Shown here piece after piece: positions 1,361 to 10,163 of a stretch of 29,951 nucleotides of DNA. The stretch is from an uncultured Myxococcales bacterium (GTDB lineage: Bacteria > Myxococcota_A > UBA9042 > CAIXZC01). The position numbers were made by a program, and so were the translations under genes. Location of the stretch: assembly GCA_964576155.1 (NCBI GenBank), contig CAZNWW010000002.1:1-29951 (forward strand), read 5' to 3'. The notes beneath the pieces are model-generated. The model was not told the origin of the DNA, ran no database searches, and saw nothing but the letters and a program-made list of their open reading frames with translations. How positions within the stretch are numbered: the stretch's first letter is position 1; the number at the start of each line of letters is the position of its first letter.

Positions 1361-3043
1361 ATGTCCCACGAGCCCGAGAAGATCATCTACTCCATGATGC
1401 GGGTGGGCAAGGTCCACGGCACGAAGCAGGTCCTCAAGGACATCTCGCTGTCCTACTTCTACGGGGCCAAGATCGGCGTCCTCGGGTTGAACGGCTCGGG
1501 GAAGAGCACCCTGCTCAAGATCATGGCTGGGATAGACACGGAGATTCTGGGCGAGACCGCGTGCGCGCCGGGATTCACAATCGGCTACCTGGAGCAAGAG
1601 CCCCTGGTGGATGAGGAGAAGACCATCCTCGAGGTGGTTCAGGAAGGCGCAGCGGAGACCATCGCCCTCCTGAAGGAGTTCGAAGACATCAGCATGTCCC
1701 TGGGGGAGCCCATGTCCGACGAGGAGATGGACAAGGCCATCAACCGACAGGGGGATCTCCAGGACAAGCTGGACGCGACGGACGCGTGGGACCTGGATAG
1801 CCGCCTCGACCAGGCCATGGACGCGCTGCGCTGCCCCCCGGGTGAGACCTCCGTGAAGATCCTCTCCGGCGGAGAGCGGCGCCGGGTGGCCCTCTGCCGG
1901 CTCCTCCTGCAGAAACCGGATATCCTGCTCCTGGACGAGCCCACCAACCACCTGGACGCGGAGACGGTCCATTGGCTGGAGCAGCACCTCCGCCGCTACG
2001 AGGGCACCGTCATCGCAGTGACCCATGATCGGTACTTCCTGGACAACGTGGCCGGCTGGATCCTGGAGCTGGATCGGGGCCACGGGATCCCGTGGAAGGG
2101 GAACTACTCCTCGTGGCTGGAGCAGAAGTCCCGCCGCCTGGCCCAGGAGGATCGTTCAGAGGACAAGCGCCTCCGAACCCTAGAGCGTGAGCTGGAGTGG
2201 GTCCGTCTGAGCCCCAAGGGCAGACGGGCCAAGGGCAAGGCCCGAATCAATGCCTACAACGACCTCCTCTCCCAGGAGATGGAGAAGCGTCAGGAGGACC
2301 TGGAGATCTTCATCCCCGCGGGACCCCGCCTGGGGGACATCGTCATCGACGCAGACGGCGTCCGCAAAGGCTTCGACGATCGGCTCCTGGTGGACGACAT
2401 GACCTTCCGGGTGCCCCCCGGCGCCATCGTGGGCATCGTCGGTCCCAACGGCGCAGGCAAGACGACCCTGTTCCGCATGATCACCGGAGAGCTGGCGCCC
2501 GACGCGGGGACCTTCCGTGTCGGCGAGACCGTTAGCCTCGCCTACGCGGATCAGATGCGCAGCAGCCTCGACGGAGAGATGACGGTCTACGAGGCGATCT
2601 CCGGCGGGAACGAGACGATCCAGCTCGGACGGTGGGAGGTCAACTCCCGGGCCTACGTGGCCCGGTTCAACTTCAACGGTGCGGACCAGCAGAAGCCGGT
2701 CTCCGCTATCTCAGGCGGAGAGCGCAACCGGGTCCACCTGGCCTGCATGCTCCGCCAGGGGGCCAACGTCCTACTCCTGGACGAGCCCACCAACGACTTG
2801 GACGTGAACACCCTGCGTGCCCTCGAGGACGGCCTCGGTGCCTTCGCTGGCTGTGCCCTGATCATCAGCCATGATCGGTGGTTCCTGGACCGGGTCTGCA
2901 CACACACCCTCGCGTTCGAGGGCGACAGCGAGACCCTCTGGTTCCCGGGGACCTGGACCGAGTACGACGAAGACCGTCGCCGACGCCTCGGCGCGGACGC
3001 AGACCGCCCGCACCGTATCCGCTACCGAACTCTGACGCGTTGA
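1361..3043 (+). CDS. ettA: Energy-dependent translational throttle protein EttA (ABC-F ATPase)
   Basis: Two ABC domains (GLNGSGKST/LSGGERRR/LLLDEPTNHLD and GPNGAGKTT/ISGGERNR/LLLDEPTNDLD), no TM segments, and the EttA-typical ELEWVR.SPKGR.AK linker. Start placed at ATG 1361 after AGGAG, giving 560 aa. Confidence 0.93.
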   Translation: MSHEPEKIIYSMMRVGKVHGTKQVLKDISLSYFYGAKIGVLGLNGSGKSTLLKIMAGIDTEILGETACAPGFTIGYLEQEPLVDEEKTILEVVQEGAAETIALLKEFEDISMSLGEPMSDEEMDKAINRQGDLQDKLDATDAWDLDSRLDQAMDALRCPPGETSVKILSGGERRRVALCRLLLQKPDILLLDEPTNHLDAETVHWLEQHLRRYEGTVIAVTHDRYFLDNVAGWILELDRGHGIPWKGNYSSWLEQKSRRLAQEDRSEDKRLRTLERELEWVRLSPKGRRAKGKARINAYNDLLSQEMEKRQEDLEIFIPAGPRLGDIVIDADGVRKGFDDRLLVDDMTFRVPPGAIVGIVGPNGAGKTTLFRMITGELAPDAGTFRVGETVSLAYADQMRSSLDGEMTVYEAISGGNETIQLGRWEVNSRAYVARFNFNGADQQKPVSAISGGERNRVHLACMLRQGANVLLLDEPTNDLDVNTLRALEDGLGAFAGCALIISHDRWFLDRVCTHTLAFEGDSETLWFPGTWTEYDEDRRRRLGADADRPHRIRYRTLTR

Positions 3044-4689
3044 GTGACGACGCTGCCTTCCTGACCCGGGCGGAGGACGACTACTACGGGGCGGGCGTCG
3101 TCGGGCCAGGTCAGCTCCAGGGCCTCAAGGGTTCCGTCCGGGCCGGCCCGTGGCACCAGGTACCCTTCGCCACAGGGGTGGGCTCGCCCGATCTCCACGT
3201 CCGTCCCCATGGTCAGGAACATTCGGATCAGGTCCTCCTCCAGCCATCCCGGCGGGAGGTCGAGACGCATGGTCCCCGGCGCGGAGCGCACGATGTCGGG
3301 CACCGGGCCGGGCCCGAAGGGCTCCGAGGAGGTAGTCACGAGATGGGTGCGGAGGCCGTCGGCTCCGTGGAGCAGGCGCAGGCGCTGTCCAGTGTGGGCC
3401 GCAATGAACGGCAGGTTGACCAGGTAGAGATCCTGGTCGCCATCCCGCACCTCAGGGGCCACTTCGAGCACCCGCTGTGCGATCTCACGGTTGCGGGCTT
3501 CGAGGCTGTGATAGGTGAAAAAACCCTGGAGTGCGTGGGCCCCGAAGAGGAGGACCGTTGCGATGAAGAAGAACGTCCGCAGGCGGGGACGCGGGATCCA
3601 TAGCAGGATGCCCGCAGCAAGGACTGCTACTCCTACGTTAGAGAGGTAGGTGTAATGGTTGGACGCCATGAGGGGGAGGGTCGGGATCAGGCCCGCCGCG
3701 GTCCAGGCCAGCCAGGCAGGGGTGCCAGGAGCCCGGCGAAGGATCCGGGCCACCGCGATCCAGCCGGCAATGGTCATCCCGGCGACGGCGGCGAGGGCCA
3801 GGGGCGTCTTGTAGAGAAATGCCACCGGCGCTACGGGCATTATCGGCACGGAGACGAGCCACGCGAAGTAGTAGTAGACGAGCTTTACCGCAGCGAAGGC
3901 TGGGAAGTCCGGGTCCGTCGGTGAGATGTAGTAGGGCTTGGGCGGGTGGGACCCCAGACCCATGACGCCCAACCGAAGTCCGAGATAGAGGACCGTGAGG
4001 AGGACGACCGGCCAGAGTCGGGCAGCGGCTTCACGGATGACCTTCGACACCGGGAGTCCGGGCTCCCGCCGCATCCATTCGATCAGTACGAGGAACACCG
4101 GAAGGGTCACCGCTCCCTCTTTGGTAAAAAAAGCAGCCGCCGCGCAGGCGAGCGAGCCCAGCCGCGCAGGGACGGAGCGGTCCCCGTCCAGGGCGCGGGC
4201 GTGGAGGAGGAGTGCTCCCAGGACAAAGGTCGCCATGAGCACCTCGGTCCGTCCCGAGATCCAGAGCACCGCAACGGTGTGATGCGGGAAGGCTGCGAAG
4301 AGGCAGGCAGCCAGGAGCGCATGCCCGGGTCCGATGCCCAGGCGCAGCAGGAGGCGCCGTACCATCACCGCGTTCAGACAGTGGAGCGCCAGATTGGTCA
4401 GGTGGTAGCCGAAGGCCGTGAATCCCCACACGGCGTGGTCCAGCTTGAGGCTCAATACGAAGAGGGGACGCAGGAAACGCACGGGCTCCTGGTCGAGGCA
4501 CCAGACCTCGATGGTGGCCGGGTCGAACACGGAGAATCCCTGCGCCAGCCCCTGTAGGCTCCAGGGCGCGGTCAGGGCCCTCTCGAGGTTGTGGAGGTCA
4601 TCCAGGAAGAAGCCGAGGGCGAGGGCGCACGCCCAGAAGAGGAGCGCCACTCCGAGGACGACCAGATCTTCGTTCGCAGGACGCTTCAT
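3022..4689 (-). CDS. GT-C-fold polytopic membrane glycosyltransferase-like protein (TMTC/PMT-like membrane core, no TPRs), paralogue 2
   Basis: Acidic FLDD motif after TM1; RPLFVLSLKLDHAVWG..AFGYHLTNLALH; LFAAFPHH..AVLWISGR; FTKEGA. About 11-13 hydrophobic segments followed by a soluble C-terminal domain. Confidence 0.72.
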   Translation of the reverse strand: MKRPANEDLVVLGVALLFWACALALGFFLDDLHNLERALTAPWSLQGLAQGFSVFDPATIEVWCLDQEPVRFLRPLFVLSLKLDHAVWGFTAFGYHLTNLALHCLNAVMVRRLLLRLGIGPGHALLAACLFAAFPHHTVAVLWISGRTEVLMATFVLGALLLHARALDGDRSVPARLGSLACAAAAFFTKEGAVTLPVFLVLIEWMRREPGLPVSKVIREAAARLWPVVLLTVLYLGLRLGVMGLGSHPPKPYYISPTDPDFPAFAAVKLVYYYFAWLVSVPIMPVAPVAFLYKTPLALAAVAGMTIAGWIAVARILRRAPGTPAWLAWTAAGLIPTLPLMASNHYTYLSNVGVAVLAAGILLWIPRPRLRTFFFIATVLLFGAHALQGFFTYHSLEARNREIAQRVLEVAPEVRDGDQDLYLVNLPFIAAHTGQRLRLLHGADGLRTHLVTTSSEPFGPGPVPDIVRSAPGTMRLDLPPGWLEEDLIRMFLTMGTDVEIGRAHPCGEGYLVPRAGPDGTLEALELTWPDDARPVVVVLRPGQEGSVVTQRVRVR

Positions 4690-6383
4690 GGACCGCAGAG
4701 CCGGTGAACCAGGGGGCCTTCGCCGGTATCGTAGAACGAGTAGATCCGGATACGCTCGGCATCCAGGGACTCGTCGAACCGCAGCTCCAAGGCGTCGACC
4801 TGGTCTTCAGTCCATCGTGGCGTCGCGGTCAGCCCGGGCACGTTGCGGTAGCTCCGGCCGGGGACGAGGGGTATCCGGAACAGGTGCACGTTCCATTCCT
4901 CCGGTGTCTCGAAGAGTGCCCGGTGTCCCGGAGGGGGACCGATGAGTACCGCATAGGGAGAGAGGCACTCGACCGTGGGGCCCTTGGTGGGGGTCTCCCA
5001 TTCCGGGGTGAACGTACCGAGGGTGGCCTGGATGTCGCCGTGTCCCGCGCGGAGTCGCAGGTGGGAGGCCACGTGGGACGCAGCCACGGTGAGGTTCACC
5101 AGGACGAGATGCGTCCCCTCGGATGGTGAACCGCCGATATCCCGCTCGATGTCCTCCATGGCCGTACGGTCCACGACGCCCTGCATGTGATAGAGGAGGC
5201 CACGCCCCGTGAACCCCACGAGGTAGAAGCAGACCAGGACGACCAGGGCGATTCGGCGCCGGCGGGTCGGTCGAGCGAGCGCGGCTGCCAGGATAAATGC
5301 GAAGCCTATTCCCGGAAAGTACAGATAGAGATCCGACGCCAGGATCGGCAGGGTAGGGAGGAAGGCCGCGGCCATCCAGAACCCACCGAAATAGCGACCT
5401 CGCTGTCCCTGTCCGGCGCGGTGTACGCCCACCGCAATCAGCACTGTGAGCAGCACCACACCAACGATCAGCCCGGGGTGCTCCAGGAGGAAGGCCGTGC
5501 CGAAGATCGGGACGACCGGCGCCATGGTGAGCACCGCGGCCGAGTAATGCGCCAGCTTCGCAACCGCGAAGGCCGCGAAGCCGGGATCTGTCGGCGCGGT
5601 GAAGTACGGCTCGGAGAGGGTCCCGGCGGAATCGAACAAGAGCAGGCGGTACGCGGTGAAGGCCACCAGAAGGGTTGCGAGGGGCAGGAGCGCGATCAAC
5701 GAACCGCGCCACCGGGTTCGAATCGGTCCGGGGCCCTCGAGGATCTCATAGAAGGCCGCCAGAATCCCCACCAGGACTGCGCTCTCTTTGGTGAGGCAGG
5801 CCAGCGCGGTGAAGAGCAGGGCCCAGCCCTGCAGCGTCGGACGGCGGGTCTGACGGGCGGTTACGTAGCTAAGAAGCGCAGCGACCATCCACATGGCGGC
5901 CATGCTCGTGGTCCTGCCCGCGGTCCAGCAGACCGCGGCGACGTTGTGTGGTTGGATGGCGAAGAGGATCGCAGCGATCCGCCCGAGGCGGTCGTTCCCG
6001 GAGATCCTGGTTGCGAGCTGCCCCACGAGGATCACGGTCACGAGATGCATGGCAAGGTTGATGGCGTGGTACCCGAAGGGCGCCAAACCCCATAAGGCCA
6101 GGTCCACCTTGAACGAAGCCATCACCAGCGGCCGGAAGTAGTGGTAGGCCGGCGCCGCGGGGAGGTTCCAGGTCGAGATGGACGTCGGGTCGAGGAAGGT
6201 GAAGGCGTCCCGGAGTCCCTCCCAGGTCCAAGGGGCCTGGGAGGCCCTCCAGAGCAGGTGCCAGTCGTCCAGGAACATGGGACTGGCAATCCAAGGGGCG
6301 CACGCGACCGCTGCCAGGACCATTGCCGGCCACGCGCGCAGGACAGCAGCTCGAAAACCGTGGGTCGGGACGCCACCCGTCAC
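4686..6383 (-). CDS. GT-C-fold polytopic membrane glycosyltransferase-like protein, paralogue 1
   Basis: Same motif series as the neighbour: MFLDDW; YFRPLVMASFKVDLALWGLAPFGYHAINLAMH; LFAIQPHNVAAVCWTAGR; LTKESA. Start and stop overlap both neighbours by 4 bp. Confidence 0.72.
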   Translation of the reverse strand: MTGGVPTHGFRAAVLRAWPAMVLAAVACAPWIASPMFLDDWHLLWRASQAPWTWEGLRDAFTFLDPTSISTWNLPAAPAYHYFRPLVMASFKVDLALWGLAPFGYHAINLAMHLVTVILVGQLATRISGNDRLGRIAAILFAIQPHNVAAVCWTAGRTTSMAAMWMVAALLSYVTARQTRRPTLQGWALLFTALACLTKESAVLVGILAAFYEILEGPGPIRTRWRGSLIALLPLATLLVAFTAYRLLLFDSAGTLSEPYFTAPTDPGFAAFAVAKLAHYSAAVLTMAPVVPIFGTAFLLEHPGLIVGVVLLTVLIAVGVHRAGQGQRGRYFGGFWMAAAFLPTLPILASDLYLYFPGIGFAFILAAALARPTRRRRIALVVLVCFYLVGFTGRGLLYHMQGVVDRTAMEDIERDIGGSPSEGTHLVLVNLTVAASHVASHLRLRAGHGDIQATLGTFTPEWETPTKGPTVECLSPYAVLIGPPPGHRALFETPEEWNVHLFRIPLVPGRSYRNVPGLTATPRWTEDQVDALELRFDESLDAERIRIYSFYDTGEGPLVHRLCGP

Positions 6384-7765
6384 GTGGTTCGTCCCCGCCT
6401 ACCGACATCGGTCACGAGGGCCGCCAGGGTCTCCTCGTACCGATCGGCCAGTCCCGCGATCATGGGTGTGTCCACCATGCTCGCCTTGTGATTGAAGTTG
6501 AAGCAGAGGCGGCCGCCGTACCGGATCACCGTCGTGTTGACGCCCTGGAGCCATGCACAGGGGGTCATGATTCGGAGATCCTCACCGATCCAACGGCGGG
6601 TCCCGAGCCGGCCCCCGTTCTCCGAGGGTGAGATAGCGACGAGGTTGCTGAACGGGAAGTTGAGCATGGTCCGCTTCGGTGCGAACACCGCCTGTCGGAT
6701 CCGGCCAAGCGGCATCAGGCGGGCGACCAGGATCTCGGCGAGGACCTTGGTGATGTGATCCCGCCGCCGGGCCTGCCGGTGGATCTGTCTGCGCAGGCTG
6801 TCCAGGAGATCCAGCGGACCGCTGTAGCGATCCATGTGGAAGTCGACAAGGAAGGACGAGAGGTGATTGGCGAAGGACTCCATGGTCCACGGCCGCGGAC
6901 GGACGTCCGCAGGGATCAGGAGGTTGAAGCGGCGAACCGGGTGTCCGTGGTCGCCGCTCCAACCGGCGAGGGCCAGCGCCAGGGCCGACGAGAGGACATC
7001 GTTGGTGGAGACCCCGGCGGCGCCTCGGAGCGCGCCGATCCCGGAGATCTCCTCCGGCTCCATCCAACGGTGATGGACCTGGTTGTGGCCCGTGTAGTCG
7101 CCGGGGAGGTTGCTCACGAGCTGGTCCGGGGGCCACAGGGAGTAGCGAATGATGTTCCTCATATGCAGGAAGGTCCCGATGAACCGTGCGCCGAAGCGCC
7201 GCAGGGCGCTCGGCTCCGCGACCACCGCCTCCGGGATCCGCTGGATGGGCTCGATCTCCTCAGGAAGCGTCCCCTCCGCAGCCTGATCGTAGAAGGCGCA
7301 GAAGTCCTCGAGGCAACGCCAGAAGGCCCGACCGTCTGCGATTCCATGGTGCTGCTGGAACATCAGCACGCCGCGGGATCCGCTGCGTCGCACCCAGGTG
7401 ATCCGGGCGGGGTAGTCCGTCGACATGTCGATGTAATGGTCGAAGATCTCCTGCTGGACTGCGGGGAACTGCGCTTCATCGCCGGTGAGATCCACGACCC
7501 GGAAGAGATCGTCGAGTCGGGGCGTTGGGTCGACCTCGTACACAATGCGCCGGGAGGCCTCCAGGGTGTTGCCGTCCTTCACCGGCACAGCGCGGGAGAC
7601 CAGGACCGGATAGCGCCGGGCCAGCACGGCCACGGTCCGTCGGGTGATGTCTTCGTCCAGATCCCCGTCTATGTGGAGCTGCCACACCGGTGCGGAGGAG
7701 ATCCCGTGCTCTCGGCTGGTGGCCGCAAGACAGATCGTGTCGAGATAGTCGAACGGGAATCGCAT
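6380..7765 (-). CDS. Stand-alone condensation-domain / CoA-dependent acyltransferase (HHxxxDG)
   Basis: FQQHHGIADGRAF catalytic motif; typical second-half features (STNDVLSSALALAL, IPADVRPR, FANHLS, NFPFSNL). 461 aa with no adenylation or carrier domain. Confidence 0.82.
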   Translation of the reverse strand: MRFPFDYLDTICLAATSREHGISSAPVWQLHIDGDLDEDITRRTVAVLARRYPVLVSRAVPVKDGNTLEASRRIVYEVDPTPRLDDLFRVVDLTGDEAQFPAVQQEIFDHYIDMSTDYPARITWVRRSGSRGVLMFQQHHGIADGRAFWRCLEDFCAFYDQAAEGTLPEEIEPIQRIPEAVVAEPSALRRFGARFIGTFLHMRNIIRYSLWPPDQLVSNLPGDYTGHNQVHHRWMEPEEISGIGALRGAAGVSTNDVLSSALALALAGWSGDHGHPVRRFNLLIPADVRPRPWTMESFANHLSSFLVDFHMDRYSGPLDLLDSLRRQIHRQARRRDHITKVLAEILVARLMPLGRIRQAVFAPKRTMLNFPFSNLVAISPSENGGRLGTRRWIGEDLRIMTPCAWLQGVNTTVIRYGGRLCFNFNHKASMVDTPMIAGLADRYEETLAALVTDVGRRGRTT

Positions 7766-7778
7766 AGGCTTGGAATCA

Positions 7779-8831
7779 TTACGGCAGCAAGTGGTGGGCG
7801 AAGTCCAACAGGATCTTGTACGAGGGCCCGTCGAAGCCCCCCTCTACGATGGCCATGACACCGAAGCAGAGCGTGCCCCCGAGGACCGACGCCCAGGCCA
7901 CCCGCAGAAAGAGCTCCCAGTTTCGCCGCTGCGGCGTCAGATCATCCCGGTCCTGAAGCGCGAAGACGAAATACGAGAACGGGAGGAACGCGCCGAACCA
8001 GGCGGCGTAGTTGAGCACAGGGACACCCAGGAGCAGGGCGGGGAGAGTTTCGTTCCACTGCCAGAACACCCCGGACATGGACGCCAGCGGGTCGAGCTGA
8101 GCGTCCATGCTGAGGGCCAGGGCCGTGGTGACCACGGCCCGGCGCCATGCGTTGACTTTGAGCCAGGGGATCCACTCAGCGAGCTGCTCTACGAGCACGA
8201 TGGTGATGTAGAAGACCAGGCTCCAGCCGAGCATGGTGCAGAGTGGTGCCGGCAAGGGGCCCAGGTAGAGGCGGAAGCTGGGCTCGGAGAAGAAGCCCAT
8301 GATGATCCCCGTGTTCTCGAGGATCAGGCCGTATAGGAAGGTGACCCCGAAGAACATCAGGAAGCCATGCCAGCCGCGGGTAAGGACCACGTGCGCGACA
8401 AAGATCAGGACCCAGAAGAACTGGGTCCCCTCGAAGAGGGTCGTGAGCGCGTCGTGGGAGAGCGGATGGGGTCGGTGGAGCAAGGTGACCAGGAGCGGAA
8501 AGCCCACAGCGAGGCCGGCCAGGGCCGCGTAGGCCTTCCATCGATTATCGAGGCGCCCGGAGCGCCGGACCCGCAGCACGAAGAAGAACACGAACCACGC
8601 CATGGGGAACGCAATGGTGGGCACGAAGTCCATGCGGGACAGGCCCAGTGCAGAGAAACCATCCTGAGGGAAGTTGGCCAGAGCCGCGTGCAGAAGTCCC
8701 ACTGCAGAGAGGAAGATGAACCAGACTGGCATGAATCGCAGGAACTCGTCCTTGAGGCCGGCGGCCGAGACGATGTTGGGCTGCGCCCGGGAATCGGGCA
8801 TTGCGAAAGTGCCGGTGTCCGTGTTCTCCAA
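7779..8831 (-). CDS. CruF-like (carotenoid biosynthesis protein / DUF422-type) membrane hydratase with extra N-terminal TM region
   Basis: LYGLILENTG..G, LGPLPAPLC.MLGW, ALSMDAQLDPLA....FWQW and GVPVLNYAAWF match the CruF family pattern. Start is TTG 8831 or ATG 8801. Confidence 0.75.
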   Translation of the reverse strand: MENTDTGTFAMPDSRAQPNIVSAAGLKDEFLRFMPVWFIFLSAVGLLHAALANFPQDGFSALGLSRMDFVPTIAFPMAWFVFFFVLRVRRSGRLDNRWKAYAALAGLAVGFPLLVTLLHRPHPLSHDALTTLFEGTQFFWVLIFVAHVVLTRGWHGFLMFFGVTFLYGLILENTGIIMGFFSEPSFRLYLGPLPAPLCTMLGWSLVFYITIVLVEQLAEWIPWLKVNAWRRAVVTTALALSMDAQLDPLASMSGVFWQWNETLPALLLGVPVLNYAAWFGAFLPFSYFVFALQDRDDLTPQRRNWELFLRVAWASVLGGTLCFGVMAIVEGGFDGPSYKILLDFAHHLLP

Positions 8832-8863
8832 GGCATCCCCCCCAAAGAAGAAACGTTCCCGTA

Positions 8864-8893
8864 TTTATACTGGAAAGGGGTGACTCGAATCAA
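8864..8893 (-). promoter_or_regulatory. Putative sigma70-type promoter for the CruF-like/acyltransferase/GT-C operon
   Basis: Minus strand reads TTGATT-N18-TATAAA in the AT-rich gap between the rSAM stop (8905) and the next start (8831). Confidence 0.4.
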
Positions 8894-8904
8894 GTGGATG
8901 GTCG

Positions 8905-9969
8905 TTATCCGGAGAGGTCCTTGTAGTGGCAGCGGACCGGGCCGCCGGTCTCGGGATCGTAGAGGTGGAGTGAGTTACCCTGGCACCGCTTCCATTCCCG
9001 GCAGACCGCGCACTCGCCTTTGCGTAGCCAGGATCGGTCGCGGTAGGGCTCGAAGCCTTCTTCCCAGATCGTCATGAGATCATCGGTGCGGACGTTGCCC
9101 TGGACCAGGGCCCTGTCGATGTTCGGACAGGCCGAGATAGCGCCGTCGTGGAGCACCGAAGCGATGCAGATCCCGGCGCGGCAGAAGTAGGGCTCGTCAC
9201 GGACGGCGCGGTCCACTGCGGGGGGGAGATAGCCCTCGCAACAGAAGTCGGGATGGAGAGCCTCCGTCCTTCGACGGGACGCGATCCAGTCCATGAGGCG
9301 CCCCAAGCCATCCGCGTCGAAGATGAGCTCCTCGTCCTCCCTGGCACGGCCCTTGGGGAAGATCGGGAAGATACGCCAGCGGCGGACGCCGACGTCATGA
9401 AGGAGGTCTCGGAGGTCGTCGAGCTCACTGAGGTTCCCGGGGAAAGTACAGGTGACCACGTCGAGGGCCGTGGCGCGGAGCTCCACCAGGTGCCGGAGTC
9501 CATCGATTGCTCGGCGCCAGGAACCCTCTCGACCCCGGAAAACATCATGGGTCGCTTCGAGACCGTCGATGCTCAGGGTGACGCTCTTCATGCCCAGGCT
9601 GAGGAGGGTCTGGGCCCGCTCCCGGGTCAGTGGCCAGCCGTTGGTCACCATCCCCCAGGGGATGCTACGGGTCTGTATCCTGCCGACGATTGCGCCGAGG
9701 TCGGAGTGGCAGAGGGGCTCACCGCCGGTGATCACGATTTGGAGGCCCTCACGGGGCGCGGTGTCGGCTACCTTGTCGATGACCTGGAGCCATTCTTCGG
9801 TGTTCAATGCTCCGGTGCGAGCGTCAGCGCTGCAGTCGCTGCCGCAATGACGGCAGTCGAGGTTGCAGACCTGCGTGATTTCCAGAAAGAGATACCGCAG
9901 GGGATGGACCTTGGACTCCAGATGTCGGTAGACGGGATGGACGATGCGCCGGAGGGACGGCGGGCTCAC
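8905..9969 (-). CDS. Radical SAM/SPASM enzyme, rSAM/lipoprotein-system type (TIGR04133-like)
   Basis: CNLDCRHCGSDC (CxxxCxxC), ITGGEP, VTNG, LSIDG. SPASM cysteines in FCRAGI...DGAISACP and CAVCREWKRCQGNSLH...C. The YRDRSW..KGEC segment is as I recall it from TIGR04133 members. GTG start overlaps the upstream TGA. Confidence 0.9.
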   Translation of the reverse strand: MSPPSLRRIVHPVYRHLESKVHPLRYLFLEITQVCNLDCRHCGSDCSADARTGALNTEEWLQVIDKVADTAPREGLQIVITGGEPLCHSDLGAIVGRIQTRSIPWGMVTNGWPLTRERAQTLLSLGMKSVTLSIDGLEATHDVFRGREGSWRRAIDGLRHLVELRATALDVVTCTFPGNLSELDDLRDLLHDVGVRRWRIFPIFPKGRAREDEELIFDADGLGRLMDWIASRRRTEALHPDFCCEGYLPPAVDRAVRDEPYFCRAGICIASVLHDGAISACPNIDRALVQGNVRTDDLMTIWEEGFEPYRDRSWLRKGECAVCREWKRCQGNSLHLYDPETGGPVRCHYKDLSG

Positions 9970-10163
9970 TCTTTGGCGGCGTCAGGGGCGAGGAGATTCC
10001 CCGCCTTGATGTCATTCGCCGGGGCCTCCTTGCCGTCCTTTTTAGTGTCCCCCTGTAGCGGTAACGTATCCTCGGGGTAGTACTGAGGACCGTAGCAGGC
10101 CGCCAGGATCACGGGACTGATGACACAGATGGCACCCAGGAGCAGCTTATGGATCCGCTTCAC
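9966..10163 (-). CDS. Small lipoprotein with Cys-Tyr-Gly at the lipobox; probable rSAM substrate (TIGR04134-like, minimal)
   Basis: GGAGG RBS then GTG; basic N-terminus, hydrophobic stretch, lipobox ILAA-C23, then YGPQYYP. The mature part is 43 aa, hydrophilic and low-complexity. 4-bp overlap with the rSAM gene. Confidence 0.82.
   Translation of the reverse strand: MKRIHKLLLGAICVISPVILAACYGPQYYPEDTLPLQGDTKKDGKEAPANDIKAGNLLAPDAAKE

Follow-up and report, generated by a model that had tools for sequence, protein, structure and literature searches.

A radical SAM/SPASM enzyme gene coupled to a minimal lipoprotein with Tyr-Gly on its anchor cysteine: a candidate peptide-modifying pair in a myxobacterium-like genome

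Published tyramine spliceases are radical S-adenosylmethionine (rSAM) enzymes with a SPASM domain that remove a tyramine unit at an X-Tyr-Gly sequence, the validated sites being X-Y-G (PMC10533398, PMC11626197, PMC11414181). The splice tag of PlpA, PLYGLPI, follows the pattern x-Y-G-x-P (PMC10533398, PMC11626197). Type I systems are represented by PlpX/PlpY with PlpA and by PcpXYA (Pleurocapsa), and type II by the binary enzymes RhaX, RasX and RcsX from Rheinheimera (PMC11414181, PMC10533398, PMC11626197); the binary spliceases have no Y protein and use the leader helix as activator (PMC11414181). Here we describe a gene pair in a 29,951-nucleotide stretch (hereafter the window; all positions refer to it) of contig CAZNWW010000002.1, assembly GCA_964576155.1, from an uncultured Myxococcales bacterium, which encodes a 65-residue lipoprotein precursor and an rSAM/SPASM enzyme. 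The family of gene pairs to which it belongs is already catalogued, with NCBIfam entries of the hypothetical-equivalog type, as the rSAM/lipoprotein system TIGR04133/TIGR04134; the form described here has a domain-less peptide with Tyr-Gly (YG) placed directly on the anchor Cys. On the comparative evidence below, the lipoprotein is very probably the substrate of the enzyme, with Tyr24-Gly25 as the site. We give an even chance to the fuller reading, in which the two genes by themselves make up a complete unit of the TIGR04133-type system and Tyr-Gly is modified by excision of tyramine. A search of the open literature for TIGR04133, for TIGR04134, and for splicease or tyramine rSAM enzymes together with lipoproteins returned no relevant report. 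According to reviews, Scott et al. (2022, Chem) searched reference proteomes for YG-rich neighbors of every rSAM/SPASM protein and reportedly found them in 189 genera, with 27 pairs said to be confirmed and 939 predicted; as far as the reviews describe it, that survey may already include the TIGR04133-type family.

All features of the pair lie on the minus strand. The precursor gene (9966..10163) starts with a GTG codon at 10163-10161, six nucleotides from a GGAGG ribosome-binding site at 10174-10170, and encodes the sequence MKRIHKLLLGAICVISPVILAA followed by CYGPQYYPEDT... Its TGA stop codon (9968-9966) and the GTG start codon (9969-9967) of the 354-residue enzyme gene (8905..9969) share four base pairs, GTGA, and the two genes are translationally coupled. 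An earlier note on this DNA, made from the letters alone, had reported the small open reading frame (ORF), its codon positions and the 4-bp overlap, and all three were confirmed when the sequence was read again. Comparison of precursor codons 2-33 with those of a relative whose enzyme is 81% identical (locus L090) gave a proportion of synonymous differences (pS) of 0.48 and of nonsynonymous differences (pN) of 0.076, and the corresponding values for the rSAM gene were 0.54 and 0.11. Five homologues of 63-68 amino acids have been predicted independently by gene callers in metagenomes. Given this purifying selection and the independent gene calls, the small ORF is a genuine gene that is constrained like the enzyme gene. 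An Rfam search of the window gave zero matches.

The precursor begins with a signal peptide (residues 1-22, 10098..10163), assigned from its sequence pattern and conservation, that combines a basic n-region (MKRIHK) with a hydrophobic core whose grand average of hydropathy (GRAVY) is 1.5 and ends in the lipobox L-A-A before Cys23; here and in all counts below, lipoproteins were recognized by sequence pattern alone. The lipidation Cys and the predicted modification site follow directly, with Cys23 encoded at 10097-10095, Tyr24 at 10094-10092 and Gly25 at 10091-10089 (together 10089..10097). The rest of the mature peptide (9969..10088) consists of a conserved PxYYPxDT segment and a fast-evolving acidic tail. 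In an alignment of seven such mini-peptides (alignment A1), LAACYGPxYYPxDT is invariant and the tails diverge apart from a (D/N)LLxP[DE] patch. Sixteen of the 22 signal peptide positions are invariant among the seven homologues while the mature tail drifts, and the conservation pattern suggests that the signal peptide may double as a recognition leader. The mature part of 43 residues is acidic and hydrophilic (GRAVY −1.0, isoelectric point 4.6), had no match in Pfam or NCBIfam, and was modeled by AlphaFold with a predicted local distance difference test (pLDDT) score of 38-47 over precursor residues 21-60. The missing family match and the low pLDDT bear out the earlier description of a 43-residue mature part without an apparent fold. 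When the 446 lipoprotein-like ORFs of the 5.0-Mb genome that contains the window were inspected, C-Y-G at positions +1 to +3 was present in one, the window peptide itself. Given this frequency and the enrichment of YG in partner lipoproteins described below, the C-Y-G site is beyond chance.

The enzyme matches the TIGR04133 profile (rSAM_w_lipo) with 380.2 bits (E 8e-114) over profile positions 10-349 of 350, the second-best NCBIfam family being TIGR04053 with 132 bits. The score is below the curated TIGR04133 cut-off of 425 bits. Radical_SAM and SPASM of Pfam both match. The CxxxCxxC motif (9844..9867), which holds the [4Fe-4S] cluster of radical SAM enzymes, reads CNLDCRHC, and its residues C35, C39 and C42 are invariant in 81/81 aligned TIGR04133-type and TIGR04103-type enzymes. 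Six Cys of the SPASM auxiliary-cluster region (residues 263-347, 8929..9183) are likewise conserved: C263, C281, C320, C323, C329 and C347. In an AlphaFold2 model the enzyme part has mostly pLDDT >90, and the nearest solved folds (Foldseek E 1e-16 to 1e-10) are SkfB, BlsE, SuiB, PqqE and anSME. Sequence and fold searches of the Protein Data Bank returned generic rSAM/SPASM maturases alone and no solved splicease. SkfB (6efn), SuiB (5v1q), PqqE (6c8v) and anSME (4k36) share with the window enzyme a partial TIM barrel and a C-terminal auxiliary-cluster domain, but identity is 14-24% and their substrates and reactions are other ones. SuiB, in addition, has a recognition element (RRE) for peptides that are made by ribosomes and modified after translation (RiPPs), whereas a Pfam scan and the model revealed no RRE domain in the window enzyme.

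A scan of species genomes for relatives of the enzyme gave 80 other loci, examined with 6-kb flanks and numbered here with an L. A tree of 90 rSAM enzymes was computed by a quick maximum-likelihood search on a sample picked by similarity to the query. The window enzyme falls inside a TIGR04133 clade of 63 rows, with a branch support of 99 in the Shimodaira-Hasegawa-like approximate likelihood ratio test (SH-aLRT), and groups with L089 and L090 (81% identity, SH-aLRT 100). Among the candidates scored, 3948 protein-database homologues reached E<=1e-40, and several homologues, an 81%-identity relative among them, are listed in IMG under the name 'radical SAM enzyme (rSAM/lipoprotein system)'. Many of the named homologues come from metagenome-assembled genomes (MAGs) of Deltaproteobacteria or Polyangia, and one comes from Anaeromyxobacter oryzae. 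The host, a marine Myxococcota-like MAG, is therefore an ordinary lineage for the TIGR04133-type family, and the earlier view that it would be an unusual one is contradicted.

An adjoining YG lipoprotein was found in 48 of the 63 loci of the TIGR04133 clade. The partner lipoproteins have several architectures: some are mini-peptides, some carry a ~90-residue beta-sandwich domain with a match to TIGR04134, and others have 5-9 acidic repeats; a signal peptide and YG alone are common to all of them. YG occurs 1.38 times per 100 amino acids in the partner lipoproteins compared to 0.17 in background ORFs, an 8-fold difference, and 43% of the Tyr residues in the partners are followed by Gly versus 8% in the background. 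The 130 YG sites have the consensus [VLMEKC]-Y-G-[PVA]-P. The window enzyme is within a 10-member subclade (SH-aLRT 93) in which YG is located at the lipobox in 8/8 readable partners, with A-C-Y-G across the lipobox of the partners of L009, L011, L047, L025 and L090, C-C-Y-G in that of L091 (A. oryzae) and C-A-Y-G in that of L012; the members lacking a readable partner are L089, which is cut by a contig end, and L010, which has a gene remnant. When L094 and L095, from the same taxonomic family as the window, are included, C-Y-G, C-C-Y-G or C-A-Y-G is present in L009, L011, L012, L025, L047, L090, L091, L094 and L095. A lack of YG beside close homologues had been named beforehand as an observation that would speak against the proposed splicease product; C-Y-G or C-x-Y-G was found in every readable close relative.

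Two side observations concern loci with a deviating partner. At ~5930-5985 of L010, the partner lipoprotein is a 14-codon remnant (MKRAVRVEPTPGP followed by a stop codon) that joins the start and the end of the L011 gene, and the rSAM gene is intact; the remnant stems either from an internal deletion that occurred recently or from a fault of the assembly. Thirteen Bacteroidales enzymes of the TIGR04133 type (L020, L022-L024, L028-L031, L033, L035, L037, L046 and L049) form a clade that has no convincing adjoining YG lipoprotein, and the gene for their substrate may lie at another place. An upstream Rfam search in one of them, L023, gave no match.

The pair thus resembles the described TIGR04133/TIGR04134 system in that its enzyme aligns with the full profile, lies inside the clade and has its gene start-coupled to that of a small lipoprotein in which Tyr-Gly is near the N-terminus. 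It differs in the score of the enzyme (380 bits, below 425) and in its peptide, which did not match TIGR04134 at E<=0.1. The TIGR04134 cut-off of 39.8 bits is exceeded by the partners of L019 (90.7), L026 (80.9) and L013 (46.8), and those of the closer relatives L025 and L011 scored 34.0 and 17.4. The window peptide has no match because it lacks the ~90-residue beta-sandwich domain. The earlier assignment to this pair of families consequently stands for the enzyme, which lies within the TIGR04133 clade and aligns over its full length with 380 bits, and not for the peptide. In addition, YG immediately follows the lipobox Cys in the window and lies ~5-40 residues downstream in the described system, whose hosts are gut Bacteroidales rather than a marine Myxococcota-like MAG.

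The partners found in the same taxonomic family indicate how the window peptide relates to the larger lipoproteins. The L095 partner has the site CYGPQYYPMDT followed by a CarboxypepD_reg-like domain (weak PF13620 match), and L094 encodes a further domain-less form, CYGPGYGYFPEDT. A CarboxypepD_reg-like domain also occurs in the partners of L009, L011, L047 and L091. With the same site joined to a domain in L095 and the domain absent in L094, the window mini-peptide is a derived form, produced by lineage-specific loss of the beta-sandwich domain with retention of the anchor and the site. The mini-substrate singled out by the earlier note is therefore domain-less, as stated there, but its form is a derived one that goes back to domain loss.

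Other YG systems occur in the same genome and beyond. On contig C326, locus L002 contains a second TIGR04133-type system, in which a 195-residue lipoprotein (858-1445; lipobox IIG-C) with eight [VL]YGP[QP]P sites is encoded directly upstream of a 379-residue rSAM/SPASM enzyme (1459-2598; 291 bits, TIGR04133 type). Apart from this lipoprotein, no ORF in the 5-Mb MAG has four or more YG at a density of at least two per 100 amino acids. On contig C30 of the same genome, locus L005 (258-1919) encodes a 553-residue rSAM/SPASM protein whose C-terminus runs into a lipobox-like segment, ALSLGTAS-C, and whose C-terminal part has six x-[DE]-Y-G sites; it looks like a natural enzyme-substrate fusion and is located on the splicease side of the tree. 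As an observation on another locus, L064 encodes a 290-residue protein (3993-4865) with 25 YG and the repeats RMMYGIFPV and SPYGGSTYG, and downstream of it are tandem rSAM/SPASM genes (5950-7068 and 7072-8163). One of the two enzymes is TIGR04133-like (235 bits) and the other (L064b) is on the splicease side of the tree.

A further lineage comprises TIGR04103-like rSAM enzymes of ~420 residues in Sandaracinus, Myxococcales and Leptospira (L070, L072, L080 and L082), which score 430-475 bits against TIGR04103. Their partner genes lie upstream (L070, 4897-5271 and 5510-5950; L072, 5513-5896; L080, 5588-5959; L082, 5412-5969) and encode an N-terminal zinc ribbon, a hydrophobic segment that ends in (L)MA-C-Y-G-x-x-Y or LSA-C-Y-G, and MopE-like Cys/Asp motifs. 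The hydrophobic helix and the A-C-Y-G site of these partners are nearly the same as in the window peptide, and a splicease-like lineage therefore pairs with the same site. These enzymes differ from the window enzyme in being closer to the spliceases (TIGR04103 430-475 bits, TIGR03913 350-398 bits) and in having partners with a zinc ribbon. Bona fide TIGR04103 enzymes (L073 and L077; 824 and 838 bits) with Nif11-xYG precursors are among the more distant relatives, and at least two lineages that group with the spliceases, those of the L005 fusion and of L064b, have YG-rich proteins. Given the partners of L005, L064b and the TIGR04103-like group, YG partners are present on both sides of the deepest split in the tree. 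This distribution raises the odds of a shared chemistry, short of proving it.

Taken together, the likenesses make tyramine excision the leading candidate for the chemistry, to which we would give an even chance or slightly better. As in the spliceotide systems, an rSAM/SPASM gene stands beside a precursor with X-Tyr-Gly, the family pattern x-Y-G-x-P is that of PLYGLPI in PlpA, and, as with RhaX, RasX and RcsX, no gene for a Y protein adjoins the pair. In the proposed pathway, the cytoplasmic enzyme would bind the newly made 65-residue precursor, and because the enzyme has no RRE domain, the hydrophobic signal peptide would probably be the recognition helix. The enzyme would then modify the invariant Tyr24-Gly25 behind the lipobox Cys23, most likely by the splicease reaction with loss of C8H9NO (−135 Da). 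The modified precursor would be exported and processed by Lgt, LspA and Lnt, and the predicted product is an acidic 42-residue peptide, anchored in the membrane via its modified N-terminal Cys, that would present a ketoamide at the membrane surface, perhaps with a protease-inhibitor role. A more specific version, which we put forward only tentatively and consider somewhat doubtful, takes the lipobox Cys itself as X of the splice site, such that the product would be a triacylated N-terminal alpha-keto-beta-amino acid, an electrophilic ketoamide kept at the surface of the membrane. Equally tentative are its corollaries that the signal peptide serves as RiPP leader or activating helix, a solution that would be shared by the TIGR04133-type and TIGR04103-like lineages, and that these lineages point to a class of ketoamide peptides and proteins with a lipid anchor that is widespread and so far undescribed.

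Several observations weigh against tyramine excision. Against TIGR04103, by our reading the PlpX splicease family, the window enzyme scored 121.2 bits with a cut-off of 725, and in the tree the spliceases fall together with other rSAM/SPASM lineages (SH-aLRT 98), apart from TIGR04133. By profile hidden Markov model (HMM) score and by tree the enzyme is therefore not a PlpX-type splicease, the type that the earlier note had in view (121 bits versus 725, separate clade), and the splicing reading rests on the X-Tyr-Gly(-x-Pro) motif, not on membership. The cysteines differ as well. In the window enzyme Ser333 takes the place of the fourth Cys of CX2CX5CX3C, and the commonest residue at this position in the clade is Gly (43%). 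Cys46 (97%) and Cys244 (83%) are conserved specifically in the TIGR04133 clade and both are found in the window enzyme. In the spliceases the pattern is reversed (Ala46, Asn244 and Cys333), and other SPASM enzymes keep the fourth Cys too. Because the fourth Cys is missing and the clade has C46 and C244 of its own, auxiliary cluster I of the TIGR04133 clade is probably ligated differently. As a proxy for docking, an artificial read-through fusion of peptide, X and enzyme made from both overlapping genes was modeled with AlphaFold2 from alignment A3. The peptide had pLDDT 40-58, with residues 2-24 of the signal peptide helical at 57-58, and this fusion model gave no confident peptide docking; at such values the proxy is uninformative on docking. 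The open literature yielded no experiment on a TIGR04133 member, and the sequencing runs listed are marine, seawater and vent DNA metagenomes with no RNA run among them. Tyramine excision also poses a question for lipoprotein biogenesis, namely whether Lgt, LspA and Lnt can process a Cys with a rebuilt carbonyl.

Further differences from the spliceotide systems concern the precursor. The window peptide has a Sec/lipoprotein signal, not a Nif11 or nitrile hydratase-like leader peptide, and its X would be a lipidated Cys. We also looked for residues common to the TIGR04133 and splicease clades and absent elsewhere, and obtained G43, M107, A154, A209, position 249, I278 and H335. Among these seven columns His335 alone stood out, and the lead is weak because the outgroup has eight sequences.

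The alternative that survives best keeps the same pair and the same Tyr-Gly site and assigns another radical chemistry to the enzyme; we regard it as rather unlikely. The candidates are a crosslink of the Tyr ring (a three-residue Y-G-P cyclophane, or a bond to the conserved Tyr or Phe at +4 or +6), C-beta hydroxylation, epimerization, or cleavage between C-alpha and C-beta of Tyr. The position of the TIGR04133 clade apart from the spliceases in tree and HMM score and its own pattern of auxiliary-cluster cysteines both fit such a chemistry, and the nearest solved-fold enzymes SkfB, SuiB and PqqE make crosslinks. In the lipobox-YG subclade an aromatic residue recurs at +4 or +6 from Tyr, but family-wide there is no fixed partner: the position next to Gly is variable (P/V/A/F/T/I), and the residue two after Gly is mostly Pro. 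The Gly after Tyr, by contrast, is invariant at 130/130 sites, as in splice sites, and the YG partners on both sides of the deepest tree split include the side of the proven spliceases. Thioether chemistry on Cys23, of the sactipeptide or ranthipeptide type, was considered separately and discarded for the family, since V, L, M, E or K usually occupies X and most sites have no conserved Cys nearby.

It is improbable that the lipoprotein is not a substrate at all, with the rSAM enzyme acting on a lipid or cofactor, the lipoprotein being a partner, chaperone or chance neighbor, and Tyr-Gly a structural or sorting signal. Direct evidence of modification is none, the 13 Bacteroidales enzymes have no convincing adjoining YG lipoprotein, and the L010 enzyme is intact beside a partner of 14 codons, all of which would suit that explanation. 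However, the pairing holds across phyla despite unrelated partner architectures that share YG alone, the two genes are translationally coupled, and the same genome contains a natural enzyme-substrate fusion. The low count of 1/446 also argues that C-Y-G is no general continuation of a lipobox.

Downstream of the rSAM gene, at 3022-8831 on the minus strand, are four tightly coupled genes. They encode a CruF-like membrane protein (PF04240), a condensation/WS-DGAT-like acyltransferase with the motif HHGIADG, and two proteins of ~560 residues that have no Pfam match; the L089 homologue of one of the latter has a weak PMT_2 match. Least likely of all is a six-gene hybrid cluster (3022-10163) in which the CruF-like protein, the condensation-type acyltransferase and two GT-C-like proteins tailor an exported lipopeptide: the genes are all co-oriented, with a gap of 73 bp and no terminator found on the coding strand, and both 81%-identity relatives share the synteny of the Caroten_synth and condensation genes, but apart from this synteny with L089 and L090 the four proteins stand beside the rSAM gene in none of the 80 other loci and not beside the A. 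oryzae homologue either, L089 has an opposite-strand gene of 246 residues between the rSAM and Caroten_synth genes, and the pair recurs as a two-gene unit in many different neighborhoods. With synteny limited to L089 and L090, a gene intervening in L089 and no conservation beside other homologues, the four downstream genes were rejected as components of the system.

The window pair is about the simplest object on which the chemistry could be tested, with a 65-residue precursor and a single site directly on the lipid-anchor Cys, and the same genome provides internal comparisons in the form of the eight-site paralogue and the enzyme-substrate fusion. Protease inhibitors are known to use the ketoamide group as a warhead. 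There are thousands of TIGR04133-type enzymes, 3948 of the scored candidates being homologues at E<=1e-40, and should these be spliceases, reactive ketoamide residues would be present on many lipoproteins of bacterial surfaces.

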